Assembly (NCBI GenBank): GCA_026986775.1
Contig: JALSNX010000004.1
Span: 471 to 64,470, forward strand
Direction of reading: 5' to 3'
Origin: a candidate division WOR-3 bacterium
Lineage (GTDB): Bacteria > Hydrothermota > Hydrothermia > UBA1063 > CAJXJZ01
Length of the DNA stretch: 64,000 bases
A program made the position numbers and the translations under genes. This document shows, in pieces, positions 1 through 64,000 of this stretch. Within the stretch, counting starts at the first letter, position 1. Each line of letters begins with the position of its first letter. The notes beneath the pieces were generated by a model that saw nothing but the letters and a program-made list of their open reading frames with translations, did no database searches and was not told where the DNA came from.

Positions 1-1829
1 CCTACAAGTGCCAATTGAGTGAATCTATTTATGAAATAGAACAACTTTACGTCGCTATGCAAATTCCTCTGATTAAACTCATACTTAACATACGGCTTGA
101 TATATAAGTGTTTTATAATAGGTATTTCACCCCATAGTTGAAGCAATGTGGTATCCGCCTGTCCAGATACCATCTTTTTATTAATACTATAGGATATTGT
201 AGATTCTAATAAAAATAGATCCCCCCTGACACTTACGAAAATATCTTTTTCCCCAAGTGATTTAAATACATATATGTTAAAATTTCCAAATACTCCGCTT
301 TTTCCCACAGCAGCCTCCACGCCTTCACTAACTTCATTTACTCCAAAAACATTTCTTCTGAATCCACTTCGTATAAAAATATTAGTCGGTATTATCAATT
401 GTACATTAAGATTTGATGTGGAAAAAATGTCTTCACCTGTTGACCTAACTCCTATTTTTCTGTAGTACCCTATAACTGAAGCTCTTATAGACTGGTTTTT
501 ACTGTTTACCCAGCTATAACTACCATAAAAGTCGTATATAAGTTTATTGTTATACCACATTTTCCCTATTGGTGATATTAAGTTGGAATCGGTAATCATG
601 TAAGATGTTCCAAAAGACAGACCAGGATAAACATTTCTGCTTATATTTATAGACATACCTCTACTACCATTACGGGCGTGCACTGCACCTTCAATAGAAA
701 CAAACGTATTTAATTCGTTTATGTATTTCCTGAGTCCAGCGCACAACATAGGTACGCTGTCATCATAAAACCCACGAAAATATGGGTTAGGTAAATTACC
801 ATCCGGATATATATTCACTCCTATTCCTTTGAATCGTCTTTCTGTATTATACCGGGTGTATAATCCATAAACGGAAAAATACCTATTCTCTACATTTCCT
901 TTAATGCCCAGTTTAACTGTATCTATATTACGGGTATAGAATAGGGGAAGGTCAAAGGAGAAATTCTTGGCACCTTCCAGAAAAAATTTCCTTTTTTCCG
1001 GAAAATATCGGGGTTCAACAGACAGGTCAAAGGATACAACATCCGCATCTATAGTGGAAAAATCTGGATTTATGCTTCCTTCAAATATAGTATTCTCGCT
1101 CATCTTAACTTCTATATTTCCTCCTATTTGTTTTTTGAGATTGCTATCCCTGCAATTTTTATTAACTCTTAGATATGGAAATAAATTTATCTTGAAAGCA
1201 CTCTGGCGAGTAACCGTGGAACCAAGAACTATTTTCTGCATGTTTTCAAGTCTCATAAATGGCTGATTGTAATTAGTGGCAACCATCACGTTATCATTGT
1301 GAAAATTCACACTTCCATTAATATAAAAGATTGAATCTTCAAAGAAAATCGTTTTAAATGGGATTACAAAAAGGGCAATCCATTTATTTCCTTCTATCAC
1401 TGCTCTATAATACCACAGTCCATCCCACTCTTTTGTAGAAAATCCATGCTGTGTTGTCATGAATTCGCTGTTACCACCGGAAGGTGAGCCGACAAAAACA
1501 TAAGCAAATTCTCTGGATTGATAAGTAGATAGCGTAAGCATAGCATAATCCCCCTGAAAAATAGCACTATTGTCAAATCCTTTAGATGACGACACCGGGA
1601 TAGTGGAATCTATCTCAATAATAAAGAGTAATGACTTATCGGTATAACCTGCATACCCCTTCACTTTATCAAATACTTTACTGGTGTCTGGTAATGGAAA
1701 AACTTTATAAAAGGCAATACTTTCGTTATATTTATAGTTCAATAAAAAACTATTCACAGTAGAATATTTATGAGCTACTACTGGTTTTAAGTATATCAGA
1801 GCAAAGAATATTGACTTAAACACTGTCAT
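1..1829 (-). CDS. DUF5916-like large envelope protein; C-terminus runs off the window edge
   Basis: Own minus-strand translation: open frame from ATG at 1829 (MTVFKSIFFALIYLK.., signal-like) to position 1. It is absent from the ORF track because no stop lies in the window. Contains VEPRYFPEKRKFFLEG, which resembles the DUF5916 family motif. ATGA start/stop overlap with the upstream ABC gene. Confidence 0.6.
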   Translation of the reverse strand, partial: MTVFKSIFFALIYLKPVVAHKYSTVNSFLLNYKYNESIAFYKVFPLPDTSKVFDKVKGYAGYTDKSLLFIIEIDSTIPVSSSKGFDNSAIFQGDYAMLTLSTYQSREFAYVFVGSPSGGNSEFMTTQHGFSTKEWDGLWYYRAVIEGNKWIALFVIPFKTIFFEDSIFYINGSVNFHNDNVMVATNYNQPFMRLENMQKIVLGSTVTRQSAFKINLFPYLRVNKNCRDSNLKKQIGGNIEVKMSENTIFEGSINPDFSTIDADVVSFDLSVEPRYFPEKRKFFLEGAKNFSFDLPLFYTRNIDTVKLGIKGNVENRYFSVYGLYTRYNTERRFKGIGVNIYPDGNLPNPYFRGFYDDSVPMLCAGLRKYINELNTFVSIEGAVHARNGSRGMSINISRNVYPGLSFGTSYMITDSNLISPIGKMWYNNKLIYDFYGSYSWVNSKNQSIRASVIGYYRKIGVRSTGEDIFSTSNLNVQLIIPTNIFIRSGFRRNVFGVNEVSEGVEAAVGKSGVFGNFNIYVFKSLGEKDIFVSVRGDLFLLESTISYSINKKMVSGQADTTLLQLWGEIPIIKHLYIKPYVKYEFNQRNLHSDVKLFYFINRFTQLALV

Positions 1830-3463
1830 AATAACCTCCTGTCTTCATCTGCATTTTTTAAAACTTCTGATCCTGTTATTTTTCCGTGATTTAATTTTAA
1901 TGTCCTGTCATGAAATAATTTAAGGTCATGGGATCTGTGGGCAACAGTTATGAGTGTATTTCCACCTATAAATTTTATAATTTTCTCGTATATAATGAGT
2001 GCTTCTTTGTAAGGTATATGTTCTATAGGTTCATCAAAAATGTAAACTTTTGCCTCCTTATACAGAGTGCGGGCAAGGAGTATTTTTTGTCTTTCTCCCT
2101 GTGAAAAATTTTTTCCGTTGACATCAATTAGATAATCAAGACCATATCTATCAAGGTCAAAATTAACAATATTAATTACTTCTCTTAACCTTTCATCCTT
2201 ATAACTCATATTAAACACTATGTTCTCAAGTAATGTTCCCTTAAACAAGGTTGCACTGTCTATAAACGCAGATATATCCTTGTATGGATTTACACAAAAG
2301 CGTACTTTTCCTTCCAAATTTTTAACGAAACCACAGAGAACCCGTAAAAGCATCGTTTTACCAGAACCGTTCTCACCTGTGATCAATATTTTTTCGCCAT
2401 GCTTTATGTTAAGATTAATCCTGTCAAGAACCCTTCTTTCTCCAATATTCATGGAAACGTTCATCAGATTCACAATACAACTGTCATCGCTGTCAGAAAC
2501 ATAAATTTCACTTGAGTTTTCAGTTTCTGCGAATTTATTTATTCTTTGAAACGCAGTGTAAGATTTCACAAGTCCTATCCTTAAATTCATTACACTTTGA
2601 ATAGGGTTTATCAGATAATTCTGCATACTCGTAAAGGCAAATAGTCCACCAGCTGTAAGTCTTCCCCTGTAAATTTCATACACTCCAAGAACAACGATGG
2701 AAACGGGTATAATATCTGTCAACATGTTCAAAATAACATCGTAAGAAAAAGCGTATTTTACATATTTATAGTATGCCTTAAAAACTTTATCAATTACCCT
2801 GTCAGTTTTATTAATAACTAATCCATTTTTATCATATAGTTTATACTCAAGTGGCATACCGGCTATATTGGTGAGTTGTTCTCTGGCTATAGCATCACTT
2901 TCCATAACCGGTTGCATATATACATTTAATGTTTTCTTCATCCTGCTGGTTACTAATATATAAATAGGGAGGTAAAAAAGAAGTATAACCGTGAGTTTAA
3001 CGGATATAAATAGGAGTGCAAAGATACCAAACACAAACAAGAGAATGCTTTTAAGCAATATTACATACATATCAAAGAAGATATCTCTCAAATCATCAGG
3101 TTCGTCATATACCCTTGATACTACGTATCCTTCTTTTTCGTGTGGATATCTGGCATGCTTTAGAAATTTCTGCATTAACGAAACTTTCACATCTTTGACA
3201 ATCTCAATCACCTTCCTTTCAAGCATAACATTTGACAGTAATCTTCCGGCTTCTCTCGCAAAGGTTATCAAGACTATTCCCATAGAAATCGTCACAAAAA
3301 GGCTTAGTTCATGTGAATAGACCGCACTATCAATCATTTTTTTAAAGAGAAATGGAACTGGAAGTTGCAATAAGGTTGTAATGAATATTATCAAGAATGC
3401 AATTAAATATGTGGATTTATATTGTTTTATTCTTGAAAAAGCAAAAACGAACAGTTCTTTCAT
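1826..3463 (-). CDS. ABC transporter, fused permease/ATPase (peptide-exporter type, no C39 peptidase domain)
   Basis: 545 aa. Hydrophobic N-terminal half. Walker A GENGSGKT, signature-like FSQGERQ, Walker B VYIFDEP, H-loop VAHR. 1-nt stop/start overlap with the rSAM gene. Confidence 0.85.
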   Translation of the reverse strand: MKELFVFAFSRIKQYKSTYLIAFLIIFITTLLQLPVPFLFKKMIDSAVYSHELSLFVTISMGIVLITFAREAGRLLSNVMLERKVIEIVKDVKVSLMQKFLKHARYPHEKEGYVVSRVYDEPDDLRDIFFDMYVILLKSILLFVFGIFALLFISVKLTVILLFYLPIYILVTSRMKKTLNVYMQPVMESDAIAREQLTNIAGMPLEYKLYDKNGLVINKTDRVIDKVFKAYYKYVKYAFSYDVILNMLTDIIPVSIVVLGVYEIYRGRLTAGGLFAFTSMQNYLINPIQSVMNLRIGLVKSYTAFQRINKFAETENSSEIYVSDSDDSCIVNLMNVSMNIGERRVLDRINLNIKHGEKILITGENGSGKTMLLRVLCGFVKNLEGKVRFCVNPYKDISAFIDSATLFKGTLLENIVFNMSYKDERLREVINIVNFDLDRYGLDYLIDVNGKNFSQGERQKILLARTLYKEAKVYIFDEPIEHIPYKEALIIYEKIIKFIGGNTLITVAHRSHDLKLFHDRTLKLNHGKITGSEVLKNADEDRRLL

Positions 3464-4800
3464 TAATCTCCATCAACCTTTGAATCGGCAGCCAAGATCA
3501 GAATATCGTGAATAGCAAATTTCCTGAAATCACATACTCTCTCTTTATCAACAATAACATTTTTAGCACATCCGCCGCTACATACAGGTAGCATATTACA
3601 TTCAGAACATTTTTCATCCCAGAATTCGTATCCAAGCCACTTCGTCTCTCTCGCTACATCCACTCCATTCCATATATCCCCAATTGAGTATTTTTTCATG
3701 CCCACAATATCCCAGCACTTCTGAAGGGAACCATCTGGTTCAATGAGGAGACTATCAGGAGTGGGTGCCATGCACAGAGAAAATTTAGGTTCAGGTATTA
3801 TATTCTCTGGCTTTATATGTTTATACTTTAAAAGTAGCGGTAATAAATACTGGCCATAAATCTTACCAAATTCTTCAGTAGTGAAGAGGTCACCATCAGA
3901 GAGAGTATAGGATGCTTCTTTCTCCCCTGTAACAAAGTAAGGATAGCAGGATAAATTGTAAGGATTTTTAACCTTGCTCCTGATTTGTAAATCAACATAT
4001 TGCAGAAGTTCTTCATAGTATTTGTATGTTTTTTTATTGAGATTGGATCTGCAATTTATGAAAAAATTATCTACATTGTCTAAAATATCTTTTATGTTTT
4101 TCATAATGACATTGAACGTTTTACCACCTCCTTTCAAGGGACGCATTATATTATGGACTTCTTCAGGTCCGTCCACAGTTATCTGAGCACTTATTAAATT
4201 AACCCTTTTATGTAGCTCCATAGCTAAATCTGGAGTAAGGAGATAACCATTTGTAACAATATCTGATCTAAACTCCATGTCCATCTGTGTGGCAATCTCT
4301 TTCAGTTTTTCTCCTATAAAAAATATTGCCTCTTTGTTTAAGAGTGGTTCCCCACCATAAAAAGTCAGTGAAAGAACTTTCTTTGGACGCGCTTTAATTC
4401 GTTTTTCTATAAAATTAACCACCATTTCCTGCGTTATTCTGTCCATATACTTGCCCCTGACACCATATTGAGCTTCATAACAATAAGGACAAGCAAAATT
4501 GCACCCCGTAGTGGTCAGGATAGTAAAACTATGTCTATCATTTGATCTCCATAGAGCATCAATCACTCTAAGATAGTAGTATTTAACTTCGTCAAACTCC
4601 GCTTCAACAATGAATCCTCCTTTTTTAAACTCTTCCAGTTTATCTTTATCATTGTACCACAAATCTTCGTTCTCATAAAATTTAGAAAAATCTTCTTCTA
4701 GAAGCACAAAAGCTCCTGTTAAAGAATTATATAGATATGCATTTCCATTTTTCTTAAAATACACATTAAACCTTGACCTTTTTAACATCTTCCCATTCAT
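3463..4800 (-). CDS. radical SAM/SPASM-domain peptide maturase candidate
   Basis: 445 aa. CNFACPYC (CX3CX2C) cluster motif, GGEPLL, C-terminal SPASM-type CSECNMLPVCSGGC plus upstream Cys pairs. N-terminal ~90 aa look like the peptide-recognition region of sacti/ranthipeptide-type maturases. Confidence 0.85.
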   Translation of the reverse strand: MNGKMLKRSRFNVYFKKNGNAYLYNSLTGAFVLLEEDFSKFYENEDLWYNDKDKLEEFKKGGFIVEAEFDEVKYYYLRVIDALWRSNDRHSFTILTTTGCNFACPYCYEAQYGVRGKYMDRITQEMVVNFIEKRIKARPKKVLSLTFYGGEPLLNKEAIFFIGEKLKEIATQMDMEFRSDIVTNGYLLTPDLAMELHKRVNLISAQITVDGPEEVHNIMRPLKGGGKTFNVIMKNIKDILDNVDNFFINCRSNLNKKTYKYYEELLQYVDLQIRSKVKNPYNLSCYPYFVTGEKEASYTLSDGDLFTTEEFGKIYGQYLLPLLLKYKHIKPENIIPEPKFSLCMAPTPDSLLIEPDGSLQKCWDIVGMKKYSIGDIWNGVDVARETKWLGYEFWDEKCSECNMLPVCSGGCAKNVIVDKERVCDFRKFAIHDILILAADSKVDGD

Positions 4801-4843
4801 AAATCTGTCCCCTTTTATGTCAATATTATAACATTAAATCAAT

Positions 4844-4864
4844 GGGAGTGCAAATTGCACTCCC
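4844..4864 (-). terminator. intercistronic stem-loop between precursor ORF and maturase (possible attenuator or RNA-stability element)
   Basis: Perfect 9-bp inverted repeat GGGAGTGCA / TGCACTCCC with a 3-nt loop, 19 nt after the peptide stop codon. The downstream U-tract on the minus strand is weak, so it is not a classic strong terminator. Confidence 0.45.
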
Positions 4865-4882
4865 ATTTTAGTATCTTTCGTT

Positions 4883-4999
4883 TTATTTAAATACCCTCTT
4901 TCCACACGGCGCCCACATATAACAGGCTCCACCATGGCATGTGCATACAGTGCCTTTTAACACCGCCTTCTCAGAAATCTTATGTTTTACCCAATACAT
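4883..4999 (-). CDS. putative RiPP precursor peptide, 38 aa, Cys-rich
   Basis: Internal ATG of the 115-aa track ORF, preceded by GGAGG (5007-5011) with a 7-nt spacer. Sequence MYWVKHKISEKAVLKGTVCTCHGGACYMWAPCGKRVFK, with C-x-C-x4-C-x5-C in the C-terminal half. Lies directly upstream of and co-oriented with the rSAM/SPASM gene. Confidence 0.55.
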   Translation of the reverse strand: MYWVKHKISEKAVLKGTVCTCHGGACYMWAPCGKRVFK

Positions 5000-5038
5000 T
5001 CTCTTTCCTCCTAACTCTTGGGTGACATTCCACAATTT

Positions 5039-6343
5039 GGGTGTTATCCTAAAAAGTGTGTCTGAGGTGGTATAAAATATAAGATAATGAAAAGAATTGA
5101 GGTAAAAAAGAGAAGGAGGTGTAAAATATGAGGGAGAAAAAGGATACAATGGTAAGGGGATTACTGGAGAAGGCCATGATGGCGAGGACGCATGAAGAAC
5201 TGGTATCATATTTACTCCAGGTGTTAGCATTATTAGAGAGGGATATATATCTTGAGATGAACACAGAGGACAAAGGTAACGGATTTAGGAACAGGAGATT
5301 GCATGCGGGGAGTCTAACGTATGAATTATACATACCGAGAACAAGAAAAGGTAATTTCAGACCTTCATTTTTGCCAGACAAATGGAAGAGGACAGTTGCA
5401 GATGACTTTATAAATCTTGCTTATTCTTTAATTTTATCTTCCAAATCTATAGAATCTGCAAAAAGAGCCATTAGAGAATTAAATCTTCCCTTGAGTGAGG
5501 AATACTTTGACAGGATATTAGAAGAATTACGAAAAGAATTCAAGGCCCTGAACAATGCTCCACTTTTACAGGATTGGTTTTCTCTTGTACTTGATGCAAA
5601 ACACACACAGATAATGATAGATGGACTGATAAAGCCATATGTAATATACACAGTTGTAGGAACAAGTCTTGAATGGGAAAGAAAAATTCTTTTGAGTTTA
5701 ATAAAAGAAGGCAATGAAAATATTGACATGTGGAAAAAAGTATTGGGCAACCTAATTTCAAGAGGCTTAAGAAGAGTCCTTATAATTACTCATGACGATT
5801 ATCCCGGATTATCAAAAACCATAGAAAGTTATTTTACCAGTACAGACGTCCAGCTATGCCTCGTTCACTTAATTAGAAACCTCAAAAGACATCTTACACC
5901 TTCTATGTTCACAAAAGCAAAAGAATACCTCCATTCCATAAAAAATGCAGTGTCGTACGAACACGGATTCAGTTTGTTTGAAGAAATGTTAAAAATAATA
6001 AGTGAAGAAAACCCTGATTACGCTAAAGAGATAGAAAGAAAAAAGAAGTTTTATCTTCCCTTCCTTAAATATCCCAAAGAGTTGAGAAAATCCCTGTATT
6101 CAACCAACCTCTTAGAAGGTATAAACAGAAAGATTGAAGATGCAGAAAAAATGAGCGGTGGTTATTTCCATTCACTTAAACACCTTGAAATAAAACTATC
6201 TCTGGTGTTTAAAGAACTACACACTGGTAGATGGAGTAAAACAATACCTCTTGTGGCCAAAGTTAAACATTTCCTCTATGCTGTTTTTCAGGAGAGATTC
6301 TATAATGATTAAACCGCAAGACACACTTTTCTTGACCGCCCCC
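5039..6343 (+). mobile_element. IS256-family insertion sequence (boundaries approximate)
   Basis: A single transposase ORF flanked by imperfect terminal inverted repeats: left GGGTGTTATCCTAAAAAGTGTGTCT, and the reverse complement of the right end GGGGGCGGTCAAGAAAAGTGTGTCT (core AAAAGTGTGTCT identical). Length ~1.3 kb fits the family. No target-site duplication seen. Confidence 0.7.
5128..6312 (+). CDS. IS256-family (Mutator-type) transposase
   Basis: 394 aa. RBS GAAGGAGG upstream. Family-typical region ITHDDYPGLSKTIESYF..VQLCLVHLIRNLKRHL and C-terminal STNLLEGINRKI. Confidence 0.85.
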   Translation: MREKKDTMVRGLLEKAMMARTHEELVSYLLQVLALLERDIYLEMNTEDKGNGFRNRRLHAGSLTYELYIPRTRKGNFRPSFLPDKWKRTVADDFINLAYSLILSSKSIESAKRAIRELNLPLSEEYFDRILEELRKEFKALNNAPLLQDWFSLVLDAKHTQIMIDGLIKPYVIYTVVGTSLEWERKILLSLIKEGNENIDMWKKVLGNLISRGLRRVLIITHDDYPGLSKTIESYFTSTDVQLCLVHLIRNLKRHLTPSMFTKAKEYLHSIKNAVSYEHGFSLFEEMLKIISEENPDYAKEIERKKKFYLPFLKYPKELRKSLYSTNLLEGINRKIEDAEKMSGGYFHSLKHLEIKLSLVFKELHTGRWSKTIPLVAKVKHFLYAVFQERFYND

Positions 6344-6885
6344 TCTGTATATCCAGCTTCATCCTCAATCCAATCGCTGTATGTCCTTATCCCTATCTCC
6401 CTCTTCAGTAAACCCCGGGTTTCGTCTTTGCTTTTGGCCTCACCTTCAATTTTTGACCCTTCTTGTATTTTTTAAGAACTCTGTCTATCGTCGCCCTTGA
6501 TACCTTCTTTAATTTCTCTCTCACACGAGGAGATATCTGTATGGAGTTTTCTATTTTTGGCAGAACAAAGGATATCATCGCCTTTAACCTTAAACTGCAA
6601 GGATAATCAAATACCGACCATATATACCTTAGTACCTCTGAAAACTCTTCGTCATATATCTTCCTCCTCCGCCTCTTTATTTTTATGTTAGGATCAGCTA
6701 CTAGCCTCACTCTCTTACCCTGCGCTGTAACAAATACTACCCTCTTACCCGCATTCCTCAGTAACCATGAGGCGTAAGAACATTCAAATCTGGGATTTTT
6801 CCTTTTTGGTCTTTGCTCTCCTGTATAATTTTGAATACCTCAATGTTAACTTCTTTCTGGTCATGAGATCCAACTCCTTATCCAT
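6344..6885 (-). pseudogene. decayed rve/DDE-type transposase N-terminal fragment, at least 2 frameshifts, 3'-truncated by the IS256 insertion
   Basis: ATG at 6885 gives MDKELDLMTRKKLTLRYSKLYRRAKTKKEKSQI then a stop. The next frame continues FECSYASWLLRNAGKRV..VADPNIKIKRRRRKIYDEEF.. (track ORF 6405..6710). A third frame continues LLKREIGIRTYSDWIEDEAGYTEG up to the IS256 end. Confidence 0.6.
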
Positions 6886-7066: not shown

Positions 7067-7282
7067 ATGTCTGATGTAAAGAAAGGTCGGGTCAAGTGGT
7101 TTGACTCGAGGAAAGGCTACGGGTTCATAGAACTCGAGGATGGTAGTGGTGATGTGTTTGTGCACTTCAGCGATATAGAAGGTGAAGGATACAAAACGCT
7201 GGAGGAGGGCGAGCAGGTAGAGTTTGAAATTATAAACTCTGACAAAGGTCCCAAGGCTGCTCACGTAAGAAGGCAGAGATAA
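7067..7282 (+). CDS. cspA: cold-shock protein (CSD family)
   Basis: 71 aa. [16 protein letters not shown] and DVFVHFS, i.e. RNP1/RNP2 motifs. Confidence 0.95.
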
Positions 7283-7333: not shown

Positions 7334-8710
7334 TTAAATGGATTTCTGAAAAGTGAGTTTTAATCCATTGAACCGTGGGGTTATCCTGCACATACCCCCA
7401 GAACACACAAGCCCACCCCTCTGTTTACCATAGAAAAGTGAAATATTACCGCCATTTATGTCCCAGGACACCTCAATTCCCGGCCATAAGTTTTCAAAGT
7501 TGTATCTCGGGATTTTTCTGGTAGCGTATTCAAAGAGGAATTGAATATTAAATCTCTCTGAAAGGTAAACTGTTGAGTTAAAAGTGGTTTTGAAATAATT
7601 TATACTGTCCTCCTTAAACCTGTCAATTCTTGAAAAGATTTCTATAGAAAGGGGAGAAATATCCAGATCGCTCTGAATATAAAGGTTTTTAAGATGCGTG
7701 TATTCTGGTTCAACTCTGAGTCTGTGTTCGTATCCGGACTTTATGGAGTAACTTATGTCCGTGGAATATATATCCGTTTGAAGATAAAATTCCTGAAAAG
7801 CCCTGTTAACATCGGGATTTATATAATTCGTTTCTTGAATATCAAATAGTCCTCCAGAACCGATTTCAATATTACCACGGGAAAATGGAATAAACAACGT
7901 AAAAGAGCCTCCCTTATCTGAATTTCCACCAGATGGAAGGATTTCTGTTTTGAGAGGGACGGGAGGAAGATTGAGATTGTAAAACTCAATTGAATCGTAT
8001 CTTGCAAGTTGTAAAAGAAAATTGAACTTTGCCGGCATGAACTCAACGGACACGAAAACCGCAGAGCCCTTCTTTCTGGTATATGTTATAAAATCCACAC
8101 CCCTTTTTAGTGCAAAATCCATTGATACGGAAATTTTCTTGCTGTTCATGACTATTTCACCTCCACCTATCTCAGAAAATGCATAGGGTGCCGGCATGTT
8201 CTTTCTGTTCAATCTAATATAACCTGCAGAAAAATCTACAGAACCATGCCCCATACTCAGTGAGATACCCCTTAAAATACTGGCTGTATCCTGTATGGGC
8301 GTATACGCCATTCCATCAAATTGAAGGTCATGTGGTGTGCCACTTATGGCAGAAAGAGAGGCATTCCTATGTCTCGCTATAATACTCAATCCCTTTATGT
8401 ATCTGAACCTTTTAAACTGTATATCATGAGTTTGATTAAGCAGGATTCCAGAAAGGAGGTTTTTTTGAAAATACCCGATTCCAATCTCCAGATTTTTTGT
8501 GTTCAAAGTTAACAAGGGAAAAAGGAGATACTTTCTGTGGGTGTTAAAGATATTGTCCTCTATGAGGTAGTCCGAAGAAAGGGAAAATACCTTTTCTCTC
8601 AGTAGAAGGCTTCCGAAAGACTCAAAATGCTCACTCAAACTGTCAGAATAAAGCCAGTACTCTGAATGAATATTGAAATTAATCTGAAGAAACAGGAACA
8701 GTATCCACAT
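7334..8710 (-). CDS. predicted outer-membrane beta-barrel protein (DUF6029-like)
   Basis: 458 aa, alternating beta-strand-like pattern. C-terminal GGLVCSGGMCRITPRFNGLKLTF resembles the conserved tail I recall for DUF6029 proteins. Start uncertain because it overlaps the upstream gene by 32 nt. Confidence 0.45.
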   Translation of the reverse strand: MWILFLFLQINFNIHSEYWLYSDSLSEHFESFGSLLLREKVFSLSSDYLIEDNIFNTHRKYLLFPLLTLNTKNLEIGIGYFQKNLLSGILLNQTHDIQFKRFRYIKGLSIIARHRNASLSAISGTPHDLQFDGMAYTPIQDTASILRGISLSMGHGSVDFSAGYIRLNRKNMPAPYAFSEIGGGEIVMNSKKISVSMDFALKRGVDFITYTRKKGSAVFVSVEFMPAKFNFLLQLARYDSIEFYNLNLPPVPLKTEILPSGGNSDKGGSFTLFIPFSRGNIEIGSGGLFDIQETNYINPDVNRAFQEFYLQTDIYSTDISYSIKSGYEHRLRVEPEYTHLKNLYIQSDLDISPLSIEIFSRIDRFKEDSINYFKTTFNSTVYLSERFNIQFLFEYATRKIPRYNFENLWPGIEVSWDINGGNISLFYGKQRGGLVCSGGMCRITPRFNGLKLTFQKSI

Positions 8711-9149
8711 TGCTTTTCAGACTATCAAGTATGCTTAAAAAGACTTTTTCATCTCTTGAGGAAAAACCAGTAAATCGCTTTACAAGATTTCCCTCGGTAT
8801 CATAGAGGAAAGAGGATGGCAGGGCCATAACCCCAAACTCCCGCATGAGTTTCTGCCTTTTATCTATGATAACAGGAAAGTTCCATTTGTGACCCTTAAC
8901 AAAGGACCCTACCCTTGACATCTTTCTCTTACCGTCTTCGTTTACAGCAACAACAAAGAAGTCTAAAGAATCCATCAATTTGTTGATTCTGTCAAGTTCC
9001 TTTATACACTGACTGCACCATAGTGCCCAGAAAGAGACGTAAACAGGCTTCTTCGTATATATTGTATCAAGGTTAATCGTCTCTTTATTCAGGGTGGTTA
9101 TGTCTTTTAGTGGAAAGGACAAAAACACAATAGCAAAAATCAGATTCAT
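8679..9149 (-). CDS. TlpA/ResA-like thiol-disulfide oxidoreductase
   Basis: 156 aa, signal-like N-terminus, thioredoxin motif WCSQC. Confidence 0.8.
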   Translation of the reverse strand: MNLIFAIVFLSFPLKDITTLNKETINLDTIYTKKPVYVSFWALWCSQCIKELDRINKLMDSLDFFVVAVNEDGKRKMSRVGSFVKGHKWNFPVIIDKRQKLMREFGVMALPSSFLYDTEGNLVKRFTGFSSRDEKVFLSILDSLKSNVDTVPVSSD

Positions 9150-9153
9150 AATG

Positions 9154-9747
9154 TTACTCCCTGTAGATTTTTATTACTTTTTCCCCTGTTTCTGCTTTCA
9201 CGACGGCAAAGTATATACCTGGTTTAAGAAAACCAGTATATACTCTTCCATTTTGAGGTTTTAATGTTTCAATTATACGTCCATCAATGGTAAATACAGT
9301 GGCCTTTTCAATGTTTTTACCATAGATATAATCGCCACTCATGGAAATATCCAATTTTTCTGGCATTTCACTAACAGGAACACCCCCTGTTATTTCTATG
9401 GAATCTCTGTCCTGCGTTTCGTGCTGGTCGTATACGAGAAAATAAACATCTATGGGTCCTGTTTCATTACCACCTATGAAATCAAGGGTTATGGTGTCAT
9501 GACTTCCTGCTTCCACGGTGATTGACTGAGAATCGCCCAGAAAGCACTGGTTCTGAAAGCACATCTGAAATGAAAGGTCAGAAGGCACTGCAATCTTTTT
9601 AACTATCAGGTTGTAGGTGGCATTAAAATATCCGTTATTATACAGTTCAAAATTCAGTGGCACGTAACCATTAGTGTCCATATATACATGGGTGCTATCC
9701 AGTGGTGTTAAAACAAATCCAACAAGCAATACCATTAAAATCATCAT
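9154..9747 (-). CDS. secreted protein with T9SS-type C-terminal sorting-like domain
   Basis: 197 aa, N-terminal signal. C-terminal ..TVFTIDGRIIETL..LKPGIYFAVVKAETGEKVIKIY resembles type A Por/T9SS tails. Confidence 0.45.
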   Translation of the reverse strand: MMILMVLLVGFVLTPLDSTHVYMDTNGYVPLNFELYNNGYFNATYNLIVKKIAVPSDLSFQMCFQNQCFLGDSQSITVEAGSHDTITLDFIGGNETGPIDVYFLVYDQHETQDRDSIEITGGVPVSEMPEKLDISMSGDYIYGKNIEKATVFTIDGRIIETLKPQNGRVYTGFLKPGIYFAVVKAETGEKVIKIYRE

Positions 9748-10470
9748 TTAAAACCTCCTTTGTGTCACACTCAAAATGTTTTTATTGACCGTATCCTGAA
9801 TCATGGCAACAACAGTCTTGCCACTGAGGTAGTCTTTTTTAAAAGAAACACTCTGAGGCAGGTTTGAAGGAAGTAACAGGAGCTTTCTCACCACGTTATT
9901 GTATACAGAATCCTCAGCACCGCTTAACGCAAAGAACACAGAATCCTCTGTAATGGCAACGAAAAGTACACTGGTTGTCGTGTCAATACTCTGGAGAGAG
10001 TCACAATTAAATGTAATTAAGAGGCTATCTCCTGTGGTATCAAAAGAGATTATCAGATTTATTGAATCATTTAAGAGTCTAAGGCTCTTATAATAGGTGT
10101 CAAATTTCTCAATCTGTGCACTTTCATCGCTTTCTGCCCCATCTACACGATGCACACCCTGAATAATGGTAACTGGAGCCGCATTACTAATTGCATAAAG
10201 GATAGTTTTTAAATCTATATCTTCAGGACTTATCGTATCTCCTCCATCCCATCTCAGGTGGTATTCCAGTACAGCTATACTATCTCCATAAAGTTTTTTT
10301 AAAGAATCCACGGCGTGCTCAACTATTGGACAGTTCTGACATCTGGCATAACCGAAAACTTCAAACACAGGTATTATACTCTGCCCTGCCTCCTCTGCTG
10401 GTGGTTCTGGAACACGTGAGCAGGAAGAAATAGCAATGAATATAAAGAATGTCAGAAGGAAAATTCTCAT
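9748..10470 (-). CDS. thioredoxin-fold lipoprotein (Omp28-related-like)
   Basis: Start moved to M21 (MRIFLLTFFIFIAISSCS lipobox). CQNCP motif in the context EVFGYARCQNCPIVEHAV. Confidence 0.5.
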   Translation of the reverse strand: MRIFLLTFFIFIAISSCSRVPEPPAEEAGQSIIPVFEVFGYARCQNCPIVEHAVDSLKKLYGDSIAVLEYHLRWDGGDTISPEDIDLKTILYAISNAAPVTIIQGVHRVDGAESDESAQIEKFDTYYKSLRLLNDSINLIISFDTTGDSLLITFNCDSLQSIDTTTSVLFVAITEDSVFFALSGAEDSVYNNVVRKLLLLPSNLPQSVSFKKDYLSGKTVVAMIQDTVNKNILSVTQRRF

Positions 10471-10602
10471 CCTGTAATTATTATAATGCATTGACGTAGA
10501 AATCCAAAGAGTGGTGTTCACACGATTCAAAAATGATATTTATAGAAACCCAAATGGTTCGGAACAGAAACTTTATAATAATAACAAACGAGGAGGTATA
10601 AT

Positions 10603-13600
10603 ATGTTTTCTTTTCTCCTTGGCCTGAACATTCTGATGGGTGCCTTTTATTTCACACCGTCAGTTTCTCCGGATGGTTCTAAAATTGCATTTGTGTATAT
10701 GGGAGACGTCTGGCTTGTAAACAGAGGTGATGAATATGCTCAAAGACTTACGGATTCAAAGGGATATGAACAGGGCCCTGTATTCTGGTCAGAGGATGGA
10801 AGGTATATATTCTTCTCCTCTGATAGATACGGTAATCCTGACATTTTTCGCATGGATTTGATAAAAAGAGATGACCCGTTGAGGCTGACCTATCACCCGG
10901 GGGGAGAAAAAATACTCGGTGTAAAGGAGGGTTTTTTGTACTTCTTGTCATCACGCACAGAGTTTCGTGGTGCGGTTTACAGGGTTCCCATAAATGGAGG
11001 ATTTCCCGAAAAGGTGTGGAATTTTGTCATGAACAATCTTTCTTTTGGTCGTGGGGATACAGTATTTTTTGAAAGAGGATACACACCTGTATGGAGGAAG
11101 AAATACAGAGGACCTGCTAACAGAGATATCTGGATGATGAGTAGAAACAATGATAATATGCAAAAGATAACACATTTCAGTGGCAGAGACGCATACCCAA
11201 TGTTTTCTTTTTACGATGGAAAGGTGTACTTTATATCAAATGACAATGAGGCAAATGTCAACAATCTGTACAGCATGAATCCAGATGGCACGCAGAGAAA
11301 GCAAATCACTTTTTTCAACGAAGAGGTAAGGGACCCGTTTATCTCAGGGGACGGAAAAAATATCGTGTTTACTGTGATGGGCAGGATTTATATGTACAGT
11401 ATTCCCGAAAATAAGGTGGACTCAATTTTTGTGCATGTTTCAGAGGATAAGAAAAACTCAAATCCTTACTATGAAACCCTTACAGAGGATGCCACAGAAA
11501 TAAAACCTTCTCCCCATGGAAAGGAACTTGCTTTTGTTCTATTCGGCGATATTTATGTTATGAAACTCAAAGACAACGGCATGCCTGATTATACAAGACG
11601 TATTACATTTACGCCAGAGCCTGAAAAGGATATCACATGGAACCCTAAAAAAGAAGAGATCGTTTTTGCAAGTCTGCGCGATGGAAACTGGAATCTTTAC
11701 TCATTAAGACCAGCTGATGATAGTCTTTTAGTAAATGCTACGGAGTTTTCTGTGAAGAGGCTTACAAACACTCCTGTAACCGAAAAAGAGCCCGTATTCT
11801 CTCCCGATGGGAAACTCATAGCCTTCAAAAGAAACCAGGGGACGCTGTATGTCATGGAACCAGATGGGTCAAATGTCAGAAAACTCACGGATTTTAACGA
11901 TGTTCTCTGGGTTTCCTGGTCGTGGGATTCAAAATGGCTGGCCTTTTCAAGAACAGCCCTCGGATGGCGGGAGGATGTCTATGTTGTCCCAGCCAGTGGC
12001 AAGGGAAATCCTGTTAACATAACCAATCATCCCAACGATGATTACAAGCCTATGTGGTCCTATGATGGAAGACGGATAAGTTTTGCTTCACGGGATGATG
12101 ATGGCAACCTTTACGTAAAATACATTATCTTACGCAAGGAGGATGCGGATAAAGATGCAGAATATTTTAAATCCCTGAAAAACAGTGTTTCTTCACCCAA
12201 AGAGGTTAAAATAGATTTTGATGGCATAGAGGACAGGATAAGAACTGTTTACAGGTTTCAGGGAGGATACAACTATTTTTCCCAGGACAAATGGGGACTC
12301 TGTTATTTAGTGGAGGCTGAAGACCTCGGGTCAGACGACATCTGGAAAGTTGATATAACGGGCGAAAATGTAAAAAGACTCACCCACAGAGCAGGACCAA
12401 AAATGTTTTTCTTTTCCAGTGACGGCAAGAAAGTATTTTATCTTTCCAGAAGTGGTAAAATACATAGTGTTTCTTTAAAGGGTAAGGATAGGACATTGAG
12501 TTTCAAAGAGGTGGTCTCTGTAAAAAATGAGGACTACAGGCGAGCACAGATGCTTGAACTATGGTGGCTTTTAAATGACGGATTTTACGACCCGAACTTT
12601 CACGGTATTAACTGGAAGAAGATGCTTGAAAAATACCTCCCTTACGGTGTAAATATTTACGACGACCATGAGTTTCATACACTTGTTTCATATATGCTTG
12701 GAGAACTCAATGCCTCACATCTCGGTATATGGAAGAGATACTCTGGTTTTTATGAGAAAACTGGCCTTCTTGGGGGAGAATACAGCAGGGTTTCTGATGG
12801 TTTTATAATTAAAAGGGTCATTTATGACTCTCCTCTTTATCTTAAAGGCATTAAAAAAGGTGATGTCATTTTAAAAATAGACAGAATTTCTCTTGACACT
12901 GTTCTTAACATTTACAGTGCCCTCAGATTTTTGAGAGGGAAAAAGGTTAAAATAAAATACAGAAGGGGTAAGAAGGATTACACATTAAAAATAGAACCTG
13001 TCTCTTACTGGAAGATACGAGACCTCCTCTACAGGGAATGGGTGCGGGCCAACAGAATGTTTGTTGATAGTATTTCAAAAGGGAAACTGGCCTATATCCA
13101 CATAAGAGGCATGGACTTAAGAAGCGTTAATGAATTTAAAAAATCCTTATATGCACAGAGAGACAAAAAAGGTCTTCTGTTGGATATTCGTTATAATGGC
13201 GGAGGAGATACCCATGACATTATATTGAATATATTGAGAAGAACCCGCTACCTTTATTCTATTGAGAGGGGTGAGAAAGAGAAAGAATACAGCTCACTTT
13301 TTTCATGGGATAAACCAACGGTATTACTCATCAACAGTCTGTGTTACTCTGATGCTGAGATATTCCCTGCAGGTTTTCGTGCTCTTGGACTTGGAAAGAT
13401 TGTGGGAAGTCCTACCTTTGGTGCTGTTATTGGAACGAACGATGTAAAGTTATTTGACGGAAAAACCACTTTCCGTGTTCCAGAGGAGGGATGGTTCAGA
13501 CTCAACGGAAAGAGCCTTGAACTTGGCCCTGTTATACCCGACATACATGTGGATAATCCTCCGGTTTATGACAATACCACAGGTGACCCGCAGATAAAAA

Positions 13601-13635
13601 AGGCTGTTGAAACAATTCTAAAAGAACTCAGGTAA
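10603..13635 (+). CDS. tricorn-protease-like S41 peptidase (TolB-like beta-propellers + PDZ + S41 domain)
   Basis: 1010 aa. Repeated SPDG..IAF / WS.DG..I.F propeller motifs, a PDZ-like segment (GIKKGDVILKID), and a C-terminal S41 core (LLDIRYNGGG, LLINSLCYSDAEIF). Confidence 0.7.
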   Translation: MFSFLLGLNILMGAFYFTPSVSPDGSKIAFVYMGDVWLVNRGDEYAQRLTDSKGYEQGPVFWSEDGRYIFFSSDRYGNPDIFRMDLIKRDDPLRLTYHPGGEKILGVKEGFLYFLSSRTEFRGAVYRVPINGGFPEKVWNFVMNNLSFGRGDTVFFERGYTPVWRKKYRGPANRDIWMMSRNNDNMQKITHFSGRDAYPMFSFYDGKVYFISNDNEANVNNLYSMNPDGTQRKQITFFNEEVRDPFISGDGKNIVFTVMGRIYMYSIPENKVDSIFVHVSEDKKNSNPYYETLTEDATEIKPSPHGKELAFVLFGDIYVMKLKDNGMPDYTRRITFTPEPEKDITWNPKKEEIVFASLRDGNWNLYSLRPADDSLLVNATEFSVKRLTNTPVTEKEPVFSPDGKLIAFKRNQGTLYVMEPDGSNVRKLTDFNDVLWVSWSWDSKWLAFSRTALGWREDVYVVPASGKGNPVNITNHPNDDYKPMWSYDGRRISFASRDDDGNLYVKYIILRKEDADKDAEYFKSLKNSVSSPKEVKIDFDGIEDRIRTVYRFQGGYNYFSQDKWGLCYLVEAEDLGSDDIWKVDITGENVKRLTHRAGPKMFFFSSDGKKVFYLSRSGKIHSVSLKGKDRTLSFKEVVSVKNEDYRRAQMLELWWLLNDGFYDPNFHGINWKKMLEKYLPYGVNIYDDHEFHTLVSYMLGELNASHLGIWKRYSGFYEKTGLLGGEYSRVSDGFIIKRVIYDSPLYLKGIKKGDVILKIDRISLDTVLNIYSALRFLRGKKVKIKYRRGKKDYTLKIEPVSYWKIRDLLYREWVRANRMFVDSISKGKLAYIHIRGMDLRSVNEFKKSLYAQRDKKGLLLDIRYNGGGDTHDIILNILRRTRYLYSIERGEKEKEYSSLFSWDKPTVLLINSLCYSDAEIFPAGFRALGLGKIVGSPTFGAVIGTNDVKLFDGKTTFRVPEEGWFRLNGKSLELGPVIPDIHVDNPPVYDNTTGDPQIKKAVETILKELR

Positions 13636-56706: not shown

Positions 56707-56779
56707 GGGCCCGTAGCTCAATCGGCAGAGCAGCGGACTCATAATCCGTTGGTTCGGGGTTCGAGTCCCTGCGGGCCCA
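56707..56779 (+). tRNA. tRNA with CAU anticodon (elongator Met, or Ile2 if lysidinylated); no encoded CCA
   Basis: Hand-folded cloverleaf: acceptor GGGCCCG/CGGGCCC, D stem GCTC/GAGC, anticodon loop CTCATAA, T arm CGGGG-TTCGAGT-CCCTG. Lacks initiator features. Confidence 0.85.
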
Positions 56780-56787
56780 TTTTTTAT

Positions 56788-56861
56788 GGGCGGATAGTTC
56801 AGGCGGCGAGAACGCTGGTCTCACATACCAGAGGTCGGAGGTTCAAGTCCTCCTCCGCCCA
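56788..56861 (+). tRNA. tRNA-Val (anticodon CAC); no encoded CCA
   Basis: Hand-folded: acceptor GGGCGGA/TCCGCCC, anticodon stem CTGGT/ACCAG, loop CTCACAT, T arm GGAGG-TTCAAGT-CCTCC. Confidence 0.85.
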
Positions 56862-60009: not shown

Positions 60010-60083
60010 CGCCCCCGGCAGGATTCGAACCTGCTACCTGCGGTTTAGGAAACCGCCGCTCTGTCCTAATGAGCTACGGGGGC
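60010..60083 (-). tRNA. tRNA-Arg (anticodon CCU)
   Basis: Hand-folded from the reverse complement: acceptor GCCCCCG/CGGGGGC, anticodon stem GCGGT/ACCGC, loop TTCCTAA, T arm GCAGG-TTCGAAT-CCTGC. Confidence 0.85.

Positions 60084-62571: not shown

Positions 62572-64000
<1,429 letters not shown>

Follow-up and report, generated by a model that had tools for sequence, protein, structure and literature searches.

A 64,000-nucleotide stretch of contig JALSNX010000004.1 (i.e., the window, meaning the whole stretch at its full length) raises the question of whether a 38-residue, Cys-rich open reading frame (ORF) lying beside a radical S-adenosylmethionine (rSAM)/SPASM enzyme gene is a gene at all and, if so, what becomes of its product. 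A preliminary description had proposed that the ORF encodes the precursor of a ribosomally synthesized and posttranslationally modified peptide (RiPP) and that the adjoining enzyme is its maturase. This proposal is supported by conservation, by selection, and by the motifs and modeled fold of the enzyme, the chemistry being drawn by analogy. The ORF is a real, conserved coding gene for a small Cys-rich peptide and has so far gone unannotated. We consider it likely that the product is a genuine ribosomally made precursor that is modified by the adjoining enzyme and exported, and that it is the C-type remnant of a precursor array truncated by an insertion sequence (IS).

Structure of the peptide gene

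4883 to 4999, minus strand: C-type precursor peptide gene (38 amino acids plus a TAA stop codon; MYWVKHKISEKAVLKGTVCTCHGGACYMWAPCGKRVFK; from translation, orthologs, the ratio of nonsynonymous to synonymous substitution rates [dN/dS], and alignment)
5007 to 5011, minus strand: Shine-Dalgarno GGAGG, overlapping the stop codon of a truncated upstream precursor (TAGGAGG)

The GGAGG at 5011-5007 and the ATG at 4999-4997 are separated by a 7-nt spacer, and L001, a contig carrying a closely related cluster, keeps GTTAGGAGG at the equivalent site. The ORF, its translation, and this spacing had all been described exactly, and they lie on the minus strand (4883-4999). The Cys pattern had likewise been read correctly as C-x-C-x4-C-x5-C (C19, C21, C26, and C32). 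We presume that the N-terminal M-x-W-x-K region (~17 residues) is the leader and that the C-x-C-x4-C-x5-C region is the core. A GGAGG placed 5 to 10 nt before an ATG occurs 32 times on the two strands of the 64 kb, and 18 of the 32 sites open ORFs of at least 100 amino acids; since there are only 32 such sites, the translation signal of the peptide gene is fairly specific by itself. The peptide gene is also the downstream part of a 115-amino-acid ORF (4883-5230), formed by an in-frame extension antisense into an IS256 transposase gene. This longer ORF had been suspected of being spurious, and it is spurious, since its upstream two thirds are antisense to that gene.

Conservation and purifying selection

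Among 5.8 billion proteins, the close relatives of the maturase were P0002 (80% identity; contigs L001 to L003), P0003 (61%; L004 and L016 to L018), and P0004 (57%; L005/L006, with the related L009 to L011), and the next match was 38% identical. An all-frame scan of L001 found MHWIKKQLSDDNVIRRDNVCTCHSGGCYMWTLCGRRVFK directly before the 80%-identical maturase (5791-5910), with AGGAGG upstream. In the 57%-identity lineage (L005/L006), MRWHKEEIYKPMILGADQCTCHGGACLGYVICLQQNFK stands directly before the maturase (L006 397-513); an ortholog is found in L009 (7309-7425), and close variants of the L006 peptide hold the same position in L009 to L011. A peptide ortholog was thus found before every close maturase ortholog that had upstream sequence in the L001, L006, and L009-to-L011 lineages. 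All four Cys residues, the reading frame, and the Shine-Dalgarno site are kept in the orthologs, and the family members carry GGAGG-type sites. In the DNA alignment of the window with L001, the Shine-Dalgarno site and the ATG are preserved, an in-frame 3-nt indel is present, and many changes fall at third positions; both other frames hold stop codons in one or both of these genomes. The Nei-Gojobori estimates for this pair (window versus L001) were as follows.

Whole peptide: dN 0.27, dS 1.04, dN/dS 0.26
Leader: dN 0.49, dS 0.88, dN/dS 0.56
Core: dN 0.11, dS 1.21, dN/dS 0.09
Maturase: dN 0.114, dS 1.64, dN/dS 0.07

Lack of conservation, or stop codons in syntenic loci, had been named beforehand as evidence that would count against the proposal; the ORF is instead intact in both the 80% and the 57% lineages, with the low dN/dS values given above. 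This conservation in syntenic loci under purifying selection is decisive for the conclusion that the gene is real. A chance intergenic ORF might be suspected from its length (38 codons only) and from the behavior of gene callers, which skipped it in two contigs: the public gene calls for the window's own contig (L008 7673-8001) contain no gene for the peptide, and in L001 a 47-amino-acid ORF was called in the wrong frame (5676-5819), overlapping the true B- and C-type precursor genes. However, three maturase lineages conserve the ORF together with an in-frame indel, synonymous changes, and the Shine-Dalgarno site while the other frames are interrupted, and the L005/L006 ortholog has been called as a gene and is present in several public collections. 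The window/L001 alignment, the orthologs, and the dN/dS values effectively refute a chance origin, to which we assign hardly any probability. For annotation, the consequence is that such precursor genes are missed or misframed by gene callers in several assemblies.

Expression signals between the peptide and maturase genes

4841 to 4867, minus strand: 12-bp GC-rich hairpin with a weak U tract, between the peptide and maturase genes (terminator-like scan and folding)
4825 to 4854, minus strand: sigma-70-like promoter TTTGCA-18 nt-TG-TATAAT (10/12 matches; a consensus match only)

The hairpin starts 16 nt past the peptide ORF (-23.7 kcal/mol; z = -5.5), and a compensatory A-U to G-C change distinguishes L001 from the window. 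Hairpins of unrelated sequence occur at the same position in L006, L009, and L019, so that four lineages in all have a hairpin after the last precursor. We interpret it as a probable partial terminator, through which the ratio of peptide to enzyme would be set. The TTATAAT box of the maturase promoter-like site is conserved in L001, and the hairpin and this separate site would together yield more precursor than enzyme transcript, an arrangement commonly used to that end. No known RNA family was detected at or near the locus with Rfam.

Attenuation offers another explanation: since a strong terminator-like hairpin lies 16 nt beyond this short ORF, ahead of the operon, the ORF could encode a regulatory leader peptide with no function of its own, whose translation would control the hairpin and hence maturase expression. 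This reading was rejected and appears very improbable to us: selection acts on the core amino acids (dN/dS, 0.09) and not on a regulatory codon run, up to four tandem paralogous ORFs are present that attenuation would not need, the hairpin does not include the stop codon, and folding showed no alternative pairing that could act as an antiterminator.

The radical SAM/SPASM maturase

3463 to 4800, minus strand: rSAM/SPASM peptide maturase, 445 amino acids (motifs, NCBIfam, Pfam, and modeled fold)

The identification of the adjoining gene as an rSAM/SPASM gene was borne out by matches to PF04055 (67.8 bits; cut-off, 29.5) and to the SPASM model TIGR04085 (53 bits; cut-off, 27); the peptide gene, described as immediately upstream of it, is separated from it by an 82-nt spacer with the strong hairpin. 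The radical SAM CX3CX2C motif (C100-N-F-A-C104-P-Y-C107; i.e., CNFACPYC) and the full 7-Cys SPASM motif (C343-x13-G-x4-C362, C398-x2-C401-x5-C407-x3-C411, and C423) are invariant in 50 homologs. An AlphaFold2 (AF2) model (predicted local distance difference test [pLDDT], 94; predicted template modeling score [pTM], 0.91) places a predicted domain resembling a RiPP precursor recognition element (RRE) at residues ~1 to 85 (β-strands 6 to 34 and helices 36 to 84), ahead of the TIM barrel. The closest Protein Data Bank (PDB) fold is CteB (template modeling [TM] score, 0.66 to 0.71), with a match that takes in the N-terminal domain and extends along the full length; TigE, anSME, and ChlB come next. 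CteB is also the closest solved structure by sequence (5wgg; E = 6e-17).

Among the 25 of 77 NCBIfam matches listed, the best matches of the maturase are all to maturases of Cys-rich peptides (CefB, Clo7bot, TIGR04463, geopeptide, PapB, SCIFF, and QhpD), with scores such as the following.

CefB (NF038107): 208 bits, cut-off 600, nearly full length
Clo7bot (TIGR04334): 207 bits, cut-off 600, nearly full length
TIGR04463: 204 bits, cut-off 525
Geopeptide maturase: 200 bits, cut-off 400
FlmE/OhkG: 176 bits, cut-off 500
PapB (NF047865): 118.8 bits, cut-off 340
SCIFF maturase (TIGR03974): 88.6 bits, cut-off 425

The maturase lies outside every curated family. Because its nearest relatives by sequence and by modeled fold point to enzymes such as CteB, thioether formation on Cys residues is most likely the chemistry, by analogy.

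A tandem family of precursors

From sequence comparison, the window peptide belongs to a set of paralogous precursors (i.e., A, B, and C) that were ancestrally arrayed in tandem, and it is the last (C-type) member of the array. Related loci hold up to three or four tandem precursors, with A-type (e.g., MKWIKNRVDIDKIRNMQCSMLECKCYGTGVCDGFHAEVIINT) and B-type (e.g., MYWMKKPLDKINVGNTVCRCNGPGACYLRQICSGYCPNCGLSPKS) genes upstream of the C-type gene, each with a GGAGG site; the fourth array member in L001 is possibly degenerate and has no clear Shine-Dalgarno site. Residues M1, W3, and K5 are invariant in the A, B, and C precursors, and the core takes the form C-x-C-x-G-x-G-x-C or C-x-C-x4-C (CxCx4-5C overall).

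Similar peptides accompany more distant maturases. L019/L020, in which the maturase is 38% identical and which belong to a metagenome-assembled genome named candidate division WOR-3, encode MKHIN.../MKYIN... peptides with CGCFxTxC, as well as a MKWINRAF..CKACSCFMVKC peptide after the barrel gene that, in L019, is an ordinary leader-type peptide. L021 (maturase, 33% identical) encodes MNWIQ... peptides, one of which weakly matches CefA (22 bits); the MxWI N terminus may therefore be shared more widely, beyond the window family. Since the 38%- and 33%-identity clusters also carry such peptides, the maturase clade appears to be accompanied by an M-x-(W/Y/H)-I motif at the peptide N terminus and by a core with CxC, as leader recognition by the RRE of the enzyme would predict.

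The core had been said to belong to no named family. In agreement, neither the window peptide nor its relatives matched any Pfam or NCBIfam model even at E values of up to 10, and the maturase scores below all named cut-offs. No exact copy of the window peptide or of the L001 C and B peptides occurs in a collection of 15 billion proteins, in which the L005/L006 versions are present and unnamed. A profile search headed by a 46-amino-acid paralog (word index) returned four proteins, all unnamed relatives; when HMMER was run exhaustively against 1.84 billion representatives, the only additions to this set were one A-type variant and one spurious repeat protein. Joint Genome Institute (JGI) metagenome contigs scanned with the maturase profile gave no match, and a scan of the genome collection gave two loci only. 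The peptide family is thus tiny among called proteins and unannotated. Its source appears to be uncultivated bacteria, probably of candidate division WOR-3, since the source names on the homologs P0005 and P0136 point there. Our best reading is that the locus represents a new precursor family and a new maturase subfamily within a known kind (i.e., rSAM/SPASM-modified Cys-rich RiPPs).

One 6-kb contig (L006; CAZJJV010000028.1) carries the complete A-B-C array, the maturase, an ATP-binding cassette (ABC) exporter, the barrel, and the lipoprotein-like gene. It was deposited as "Candidatus Saccharibacteria", a label that is doubtful because the contig encodes an outer-membrane barrel; the contig is probably misbinned.

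Truncation of the array by IS256

5039 to 6343, plus strand: IS256-family element, boundaries approximate, with the transposase ORF at 5128-6312 (NF033543 and PF00872)
5011 to 5040, minus strand: B-type precursor remnant (the last 9 codons, PNCGMSPKS, and the stop codon), abutting the IS256 end

The transposase matches NF033543 (207 bits; cut-off, 150) and PF00872. The element is present once in the window, and its terminal inverted repeats are imperfect, including a perfect 12-mer (5052-5063/6319-6330). The B-type remnant is 89% identical to residues 37 to 45 of the L001 B-type peptide (tblastn), and DNA similarity to L001 ends at position 5040 of the window. The remainder of the B gene is absent from the far flank of the element, no matching target-site duplication was seen, and searches with regular expressions, tblastn, and blastn found no A- or B-type sequence in the window besides the 9-codon remnant. 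Given the remnant at one IS end and an unrelated far flank, the array was truncated by the insertion, probably together with a deletion or rearrangement. The native promoter of the array has probably been lost in this genome; only the C gene is intact, and its expression is uncertain.

An alternative is that the family is real but its copy here is silent, a relic whose promoter, along with the A and B genes, was lost to the IS256 element and the deletion, so that C is no longer expressed and has yet to decay. The IS flanks fit this account (an IS end ~39 nt from the ATG with 9 B codons left, and a far side with neither the B remainder nor a target-site duplication), as does the lack of a sigma-70-like promoter on the peptide strand upstream of the gene (4700-5200), and a fully decayed cluster is known elsewhere (L014/L015). 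Nevertheless, every element from the ORF and its Shine-Dalgarno site through the hairpin, the maturase, and the ABC exporter to the barrel is intact, and dN/dS relative to L001 is low. IS256 ends can moreover supply outward transcription or hybrid promoters, and promoters in this phylum may depart from the sigma-70 consensus used in the scan. We regard a silent relic as unlikely and favor a precursor that is made and modified.

Exporter, predicted outer-membrane barrel, and lipoprotein-like gene

1826 to 3463, minus strand: ABC exporter, 545 amino acids, fused permease and ATPase, with a start overlapping the maturase stop
1 to 1829, minus strand: DUF5916-type barrel protein, codons 1 to 609 of 637, the ORF running off the left window edge
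L008 12920-13102 (parent contig, ~120 to 300 nt past the left window edge), after the barrel gene: lipoprotein-like gene, 60 amino acids, with an AGGAGG site (MKWLKKTVAALLSFSGCSSKKDKEPTHCGAYSCSCVGTNVCNVV...)

Loci L001 to L020 keep one gene order: precursor or precursors, rSAM enzyme, ABC exporter, ~640-amino-acid barrel, and a small peptide or lipoprotein-like product with the Cys motif. The exporter aligns to models of peptidase-containing bacteriocin exporters only from profile position ~142 and so has no N-terminal C39 peptidase domain, and the cluster contains no protease gene. The left-edge protein (P0131; 637 amino acids) has a signal peptide and a weak but significant DUF5916 match; its close relatives (39 to 70% identity) are confined to these clusters, with a large gap to ordinary CBM9/DUF5916 proteins. 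Its AF2 model (pLDDT, 80) shows a predicted CBM9-like β-sandwich (TMt, 0.60 to 7nwn) and a large β-barrel, the nearest PDB folds to which are LptD, ushers, and TonB-dependent receptors (TM score, ~0.3). P0131 is accordingly predicted from the model to be an outer-membrane barrel, which fits a diderm lineage. The cluster contains no gene for a membrane fusion protein or a TolC-like protein.

The lipoprotein-like gene, which encodes 50 to 60 amino acids, is present in every related cluster, always downstream of the barrel gene. In its product (MKWLKKTVAALLSFSGC...CSCVGTNVC...), a hydrophobic stretch and a lipobox-like SFSG|C replace the polar leader, and the sequence MKWLKKTVAALLSFSG|C is compatible with the lipobox rule (i.e., a basic n-region, a hydrophobic h-region, and a Cys at about position 17). 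Matches to NCBIfam lipoprotein models were weak (E = 0.07 to 0.19). The peptide aligns with the A-type precursors, with which it has in common an MKW N terminus and C-x(4-5)-C-x-C-x5-C. A variant cluster (L004 and L016 to L018) has two rSAM/SPASM genes and two ABC exporters, keeps the barrel and lipoprotein-like genes, and carries a different 32-amino-acid precursor (MKIIKRPVT..HKDGCCH..) before the first rSAM gene. Since the P0003-type clusters without an MxWxK precursor keep the lipoprotein-like gene, the maturase may also, or instead, act on this terminal peptide. A decayed cluster (L014 7708-7999 and L015 757-1051) consists of a C-terminal fragment of the ABC ATPase followed by intact barrel and lipoprotein-like genes, so the pair of barrel and lipoprotein-like genes can persist without the maturase; its sample label, GBSSSed77C, reads as Great Boiling Spring sediment at 77 °C.

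The window peptide might, then, be made and exported as a disulfide-bonded bacteriocin or a metal-binding CxC peptide without being a substrate of the maturase, which would act on the lipoprotein-like peptide or on paralogs. CxC motifs are typical of metal-binding peptides, and L016 combines an orthologous maturase and a lipoprotein-like gene (CTCVGPNVC) with no MxWxK precursor. The peptide gene, in contrast, always stands directly before the maturase gene, and C-x-C-x(4-5)-C and an MxW N terminus are common to all cluster peptides, the lipoprotein-like one included, so that one enzyme for all of them is the simpler reading. We consider it quite improbable that the peptide is not a substrate.

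We also entertain, as a doubtful proposal, a modified envelope module. The lipoprotein-like gene would be a paralog of the A-type precursor whose leader became a lipoprotein signal peptide, and the rSAM enzyme would cross-link a lipoprotein that docks with or plugs the barrel. LptE and LptM, which partner LptD, provide a model for such docking. Possible roles for the module include the handling of a metal or ligand and, for the soluble A, B, and C peptides, immunity, secretion, or uptake. To our knowledge, a radical-SAM-modified lipoprotein with a dedicated outer-membrane barrel has no precedent.

Proposed maturation pathway

We propose that the leader (~17 residues, with invariant M1, W3, and K5) would be bound by the RRE-like N-terminal domain of the maturase, which would then cross-link the Cys-rich core (VCTCHGGACYMWAPCGKRVFK); by analogy, the likeliest products would be sactionine- or ranthionine-type thioethers of Cys. 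The hairpin and the maturase promoter-like site would give an excess of peptide transcript over enzyme transcript. The product would be pumped out by the cotranscribed ABC exporter and may cross, or act at, the outer membrane via the DUF5916-type barrel and its small lipoprotein-like partner.

Several points weigh against this pathway. Modification of the peptide, and its chemistry, are drawn from analogy with related enzymes. The fold by itself does not fix the reaction, because TigE and anSME, which are among the structural relatives, do other things (TigE forms cyclopropylglycine, and anSME oxidizes Cys to formylglycine). Asp and Glu, the acceptors of PapB-type enzymes, are absent from the core, and the paralogs do not all share a conserved acceptor residue. 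The cluster encodes no leader peptidase, the C39 domain being absent from the exporter. The P0003-type maturase ortholog (61%; L004 and L016 to L018) has no MxWxK precursor upstream. In the window itself, 39 nt separate the peptide ATG from the IS256 end upstream of it, and scanning the peptide strand (4700-5200) gave no sigma-70-like promoter for the gene within ~200 nt, a consensus that may not fit the phylum.

Comparison with known RiPP systems

The ranthipeptide/SCIFF systems (CteA-CteB, thermocellin; Tte1186a-Tte1186) share with the window cluster a short Cys-rich precursor whose gene immediately precedes that of an rSAM/SPASM enzyme carrying an N-terminal RRE, as well as the absence of a dedicated leader peptidase, and CteB is the enzyme closest to the maturase by sequence and modeled fold, as noted above. 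In contrast, the window cluster type has tandem paralogous precursors, CxCx4-5C, an ABC exporter, a barrel, and a lipoprotein-like gene. SCIFF membership was rejected: the maturase score is far below the cut-off (88.6 versus 425 bits), and the peptide matched no SCIFF or other NCBIfam model at E values of up to 10.

The CefA/CefB "Cys-every-fifth" (NF038108/NF038107) and Clo7bot (TIGR04334) families, which have short Cys-rich substrates, provide the top-scoring maturase models (208 and 207 bits). Membership in either was rejected, the maturase being far under their 600-bit cut-offs; for CefA/CefB, moreover, the peptide has no NF038108 match at E values of up to 10, and its Cys spacing is 2, 5, and 6. 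CefA/CefB and Clo7bot are computationally defined families, and our search found no usable literature on the biochemistry of CefB, Clo7bot, the geopeptide maturase, or FlmE/OhkG.

Among the maturase matches listed, we take PapB to be the highest-scoring biochemically characterized family (118.8 bits). The PapA/PapB system (freyrasin) resembles the window cluster in that PapB is an rSAM/SPASM enzyme that forms thioethers. PapB is reported to join Cys to Asp or Glu within CX3D/E motifs (PMC9413430). Membership among the PapB-type ranthipeptides was rejected, since the C-type core has neither Asp nor Glu and the score is under the cut-off of 340 bits.

StsA (CxCxCx4GxGxG) and BlaA contain nested Cys-to-Gly sactionines, the Cys13-Gly22 and Cys15-Gly20 linkages implying CxCx4GxG for BlaA (PMC10288494). 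The peptides described here resemble them in that a CxC precedes a GxG-like element (C-x-C-x-G-x-G in the A and B paralogs and CTCHGG in the C type). They differ in that the loop has one residue rather than four, and the second Gly is out of register in the C type. The enzymes differ as well: StsB and BlaB are MftC-like with a separate RRE protein, whereas the window maturase is CteB/CefB-like with a fused RRE, and no MftC-type family is among the best 25 of its 77 NCBIfam matches. We treat the resemblance to StsA and BlaA as a lead by analogy rather than as tested homology.

The export of RiPPs and bacteriocins by diderm bacteria, through a peptidase-containing ABC transporter (PCAT), a membrane fusion protein, and a TolC-type outer-membrane protein, is also comparable in that an ABC exporter and an outer-membrane protein occur within a RiPP cluster, for which Bacteroidales clusters provide a precedent (PMC10352776). 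The window exporter, however, has no peptidase domain, a membrane fusion protein is absent, and the barrel, which is not TolC-like, is accompanied by a small lipoprotein-like product with the core motif of the precursors. This pairing is unusual for RiPP clusters and hints at diderm export or self-protection. Many orphan rSAM RiPP clusters exist, but the present example is clean, can be tested, is phylogenetically remote, and may have a link to the envelope. The peptides are short (core, ~20 residues) and come in three related core designs, which makes them easy to test, and cross-linking on their CxCx4-5C scaffold could prove to have a new topology.

Neighboring genes

Between the IS256 end and a cold-shock protein gene (7067-7282, plus strand), the minus strand holds ORF fragments (6344-6885) at 6784-6885, with a GGAGG-preceded start, and at 6405-6710; these fragments had no NCBIfam match and one subthreshold Pfam match only. 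An operon at 7334-10530 (minus strand) encodes a DUF6029 protein, a thioredoxin/AhpC-like protein, and two unknown proteins. A Tricorn-type protease gene follows (10603-13635, plus strand); one is also near the cluster in L001 and none is near it in L009, and its proximity is probably shared synteny rather than cluster membership. The window also contains three tRNA genes (56707-56861, plus strand, and 60010-60083, minus strand), and at its right edge it includes a 23S rRNA gene in its 5' half (62574-64000, plus strand).

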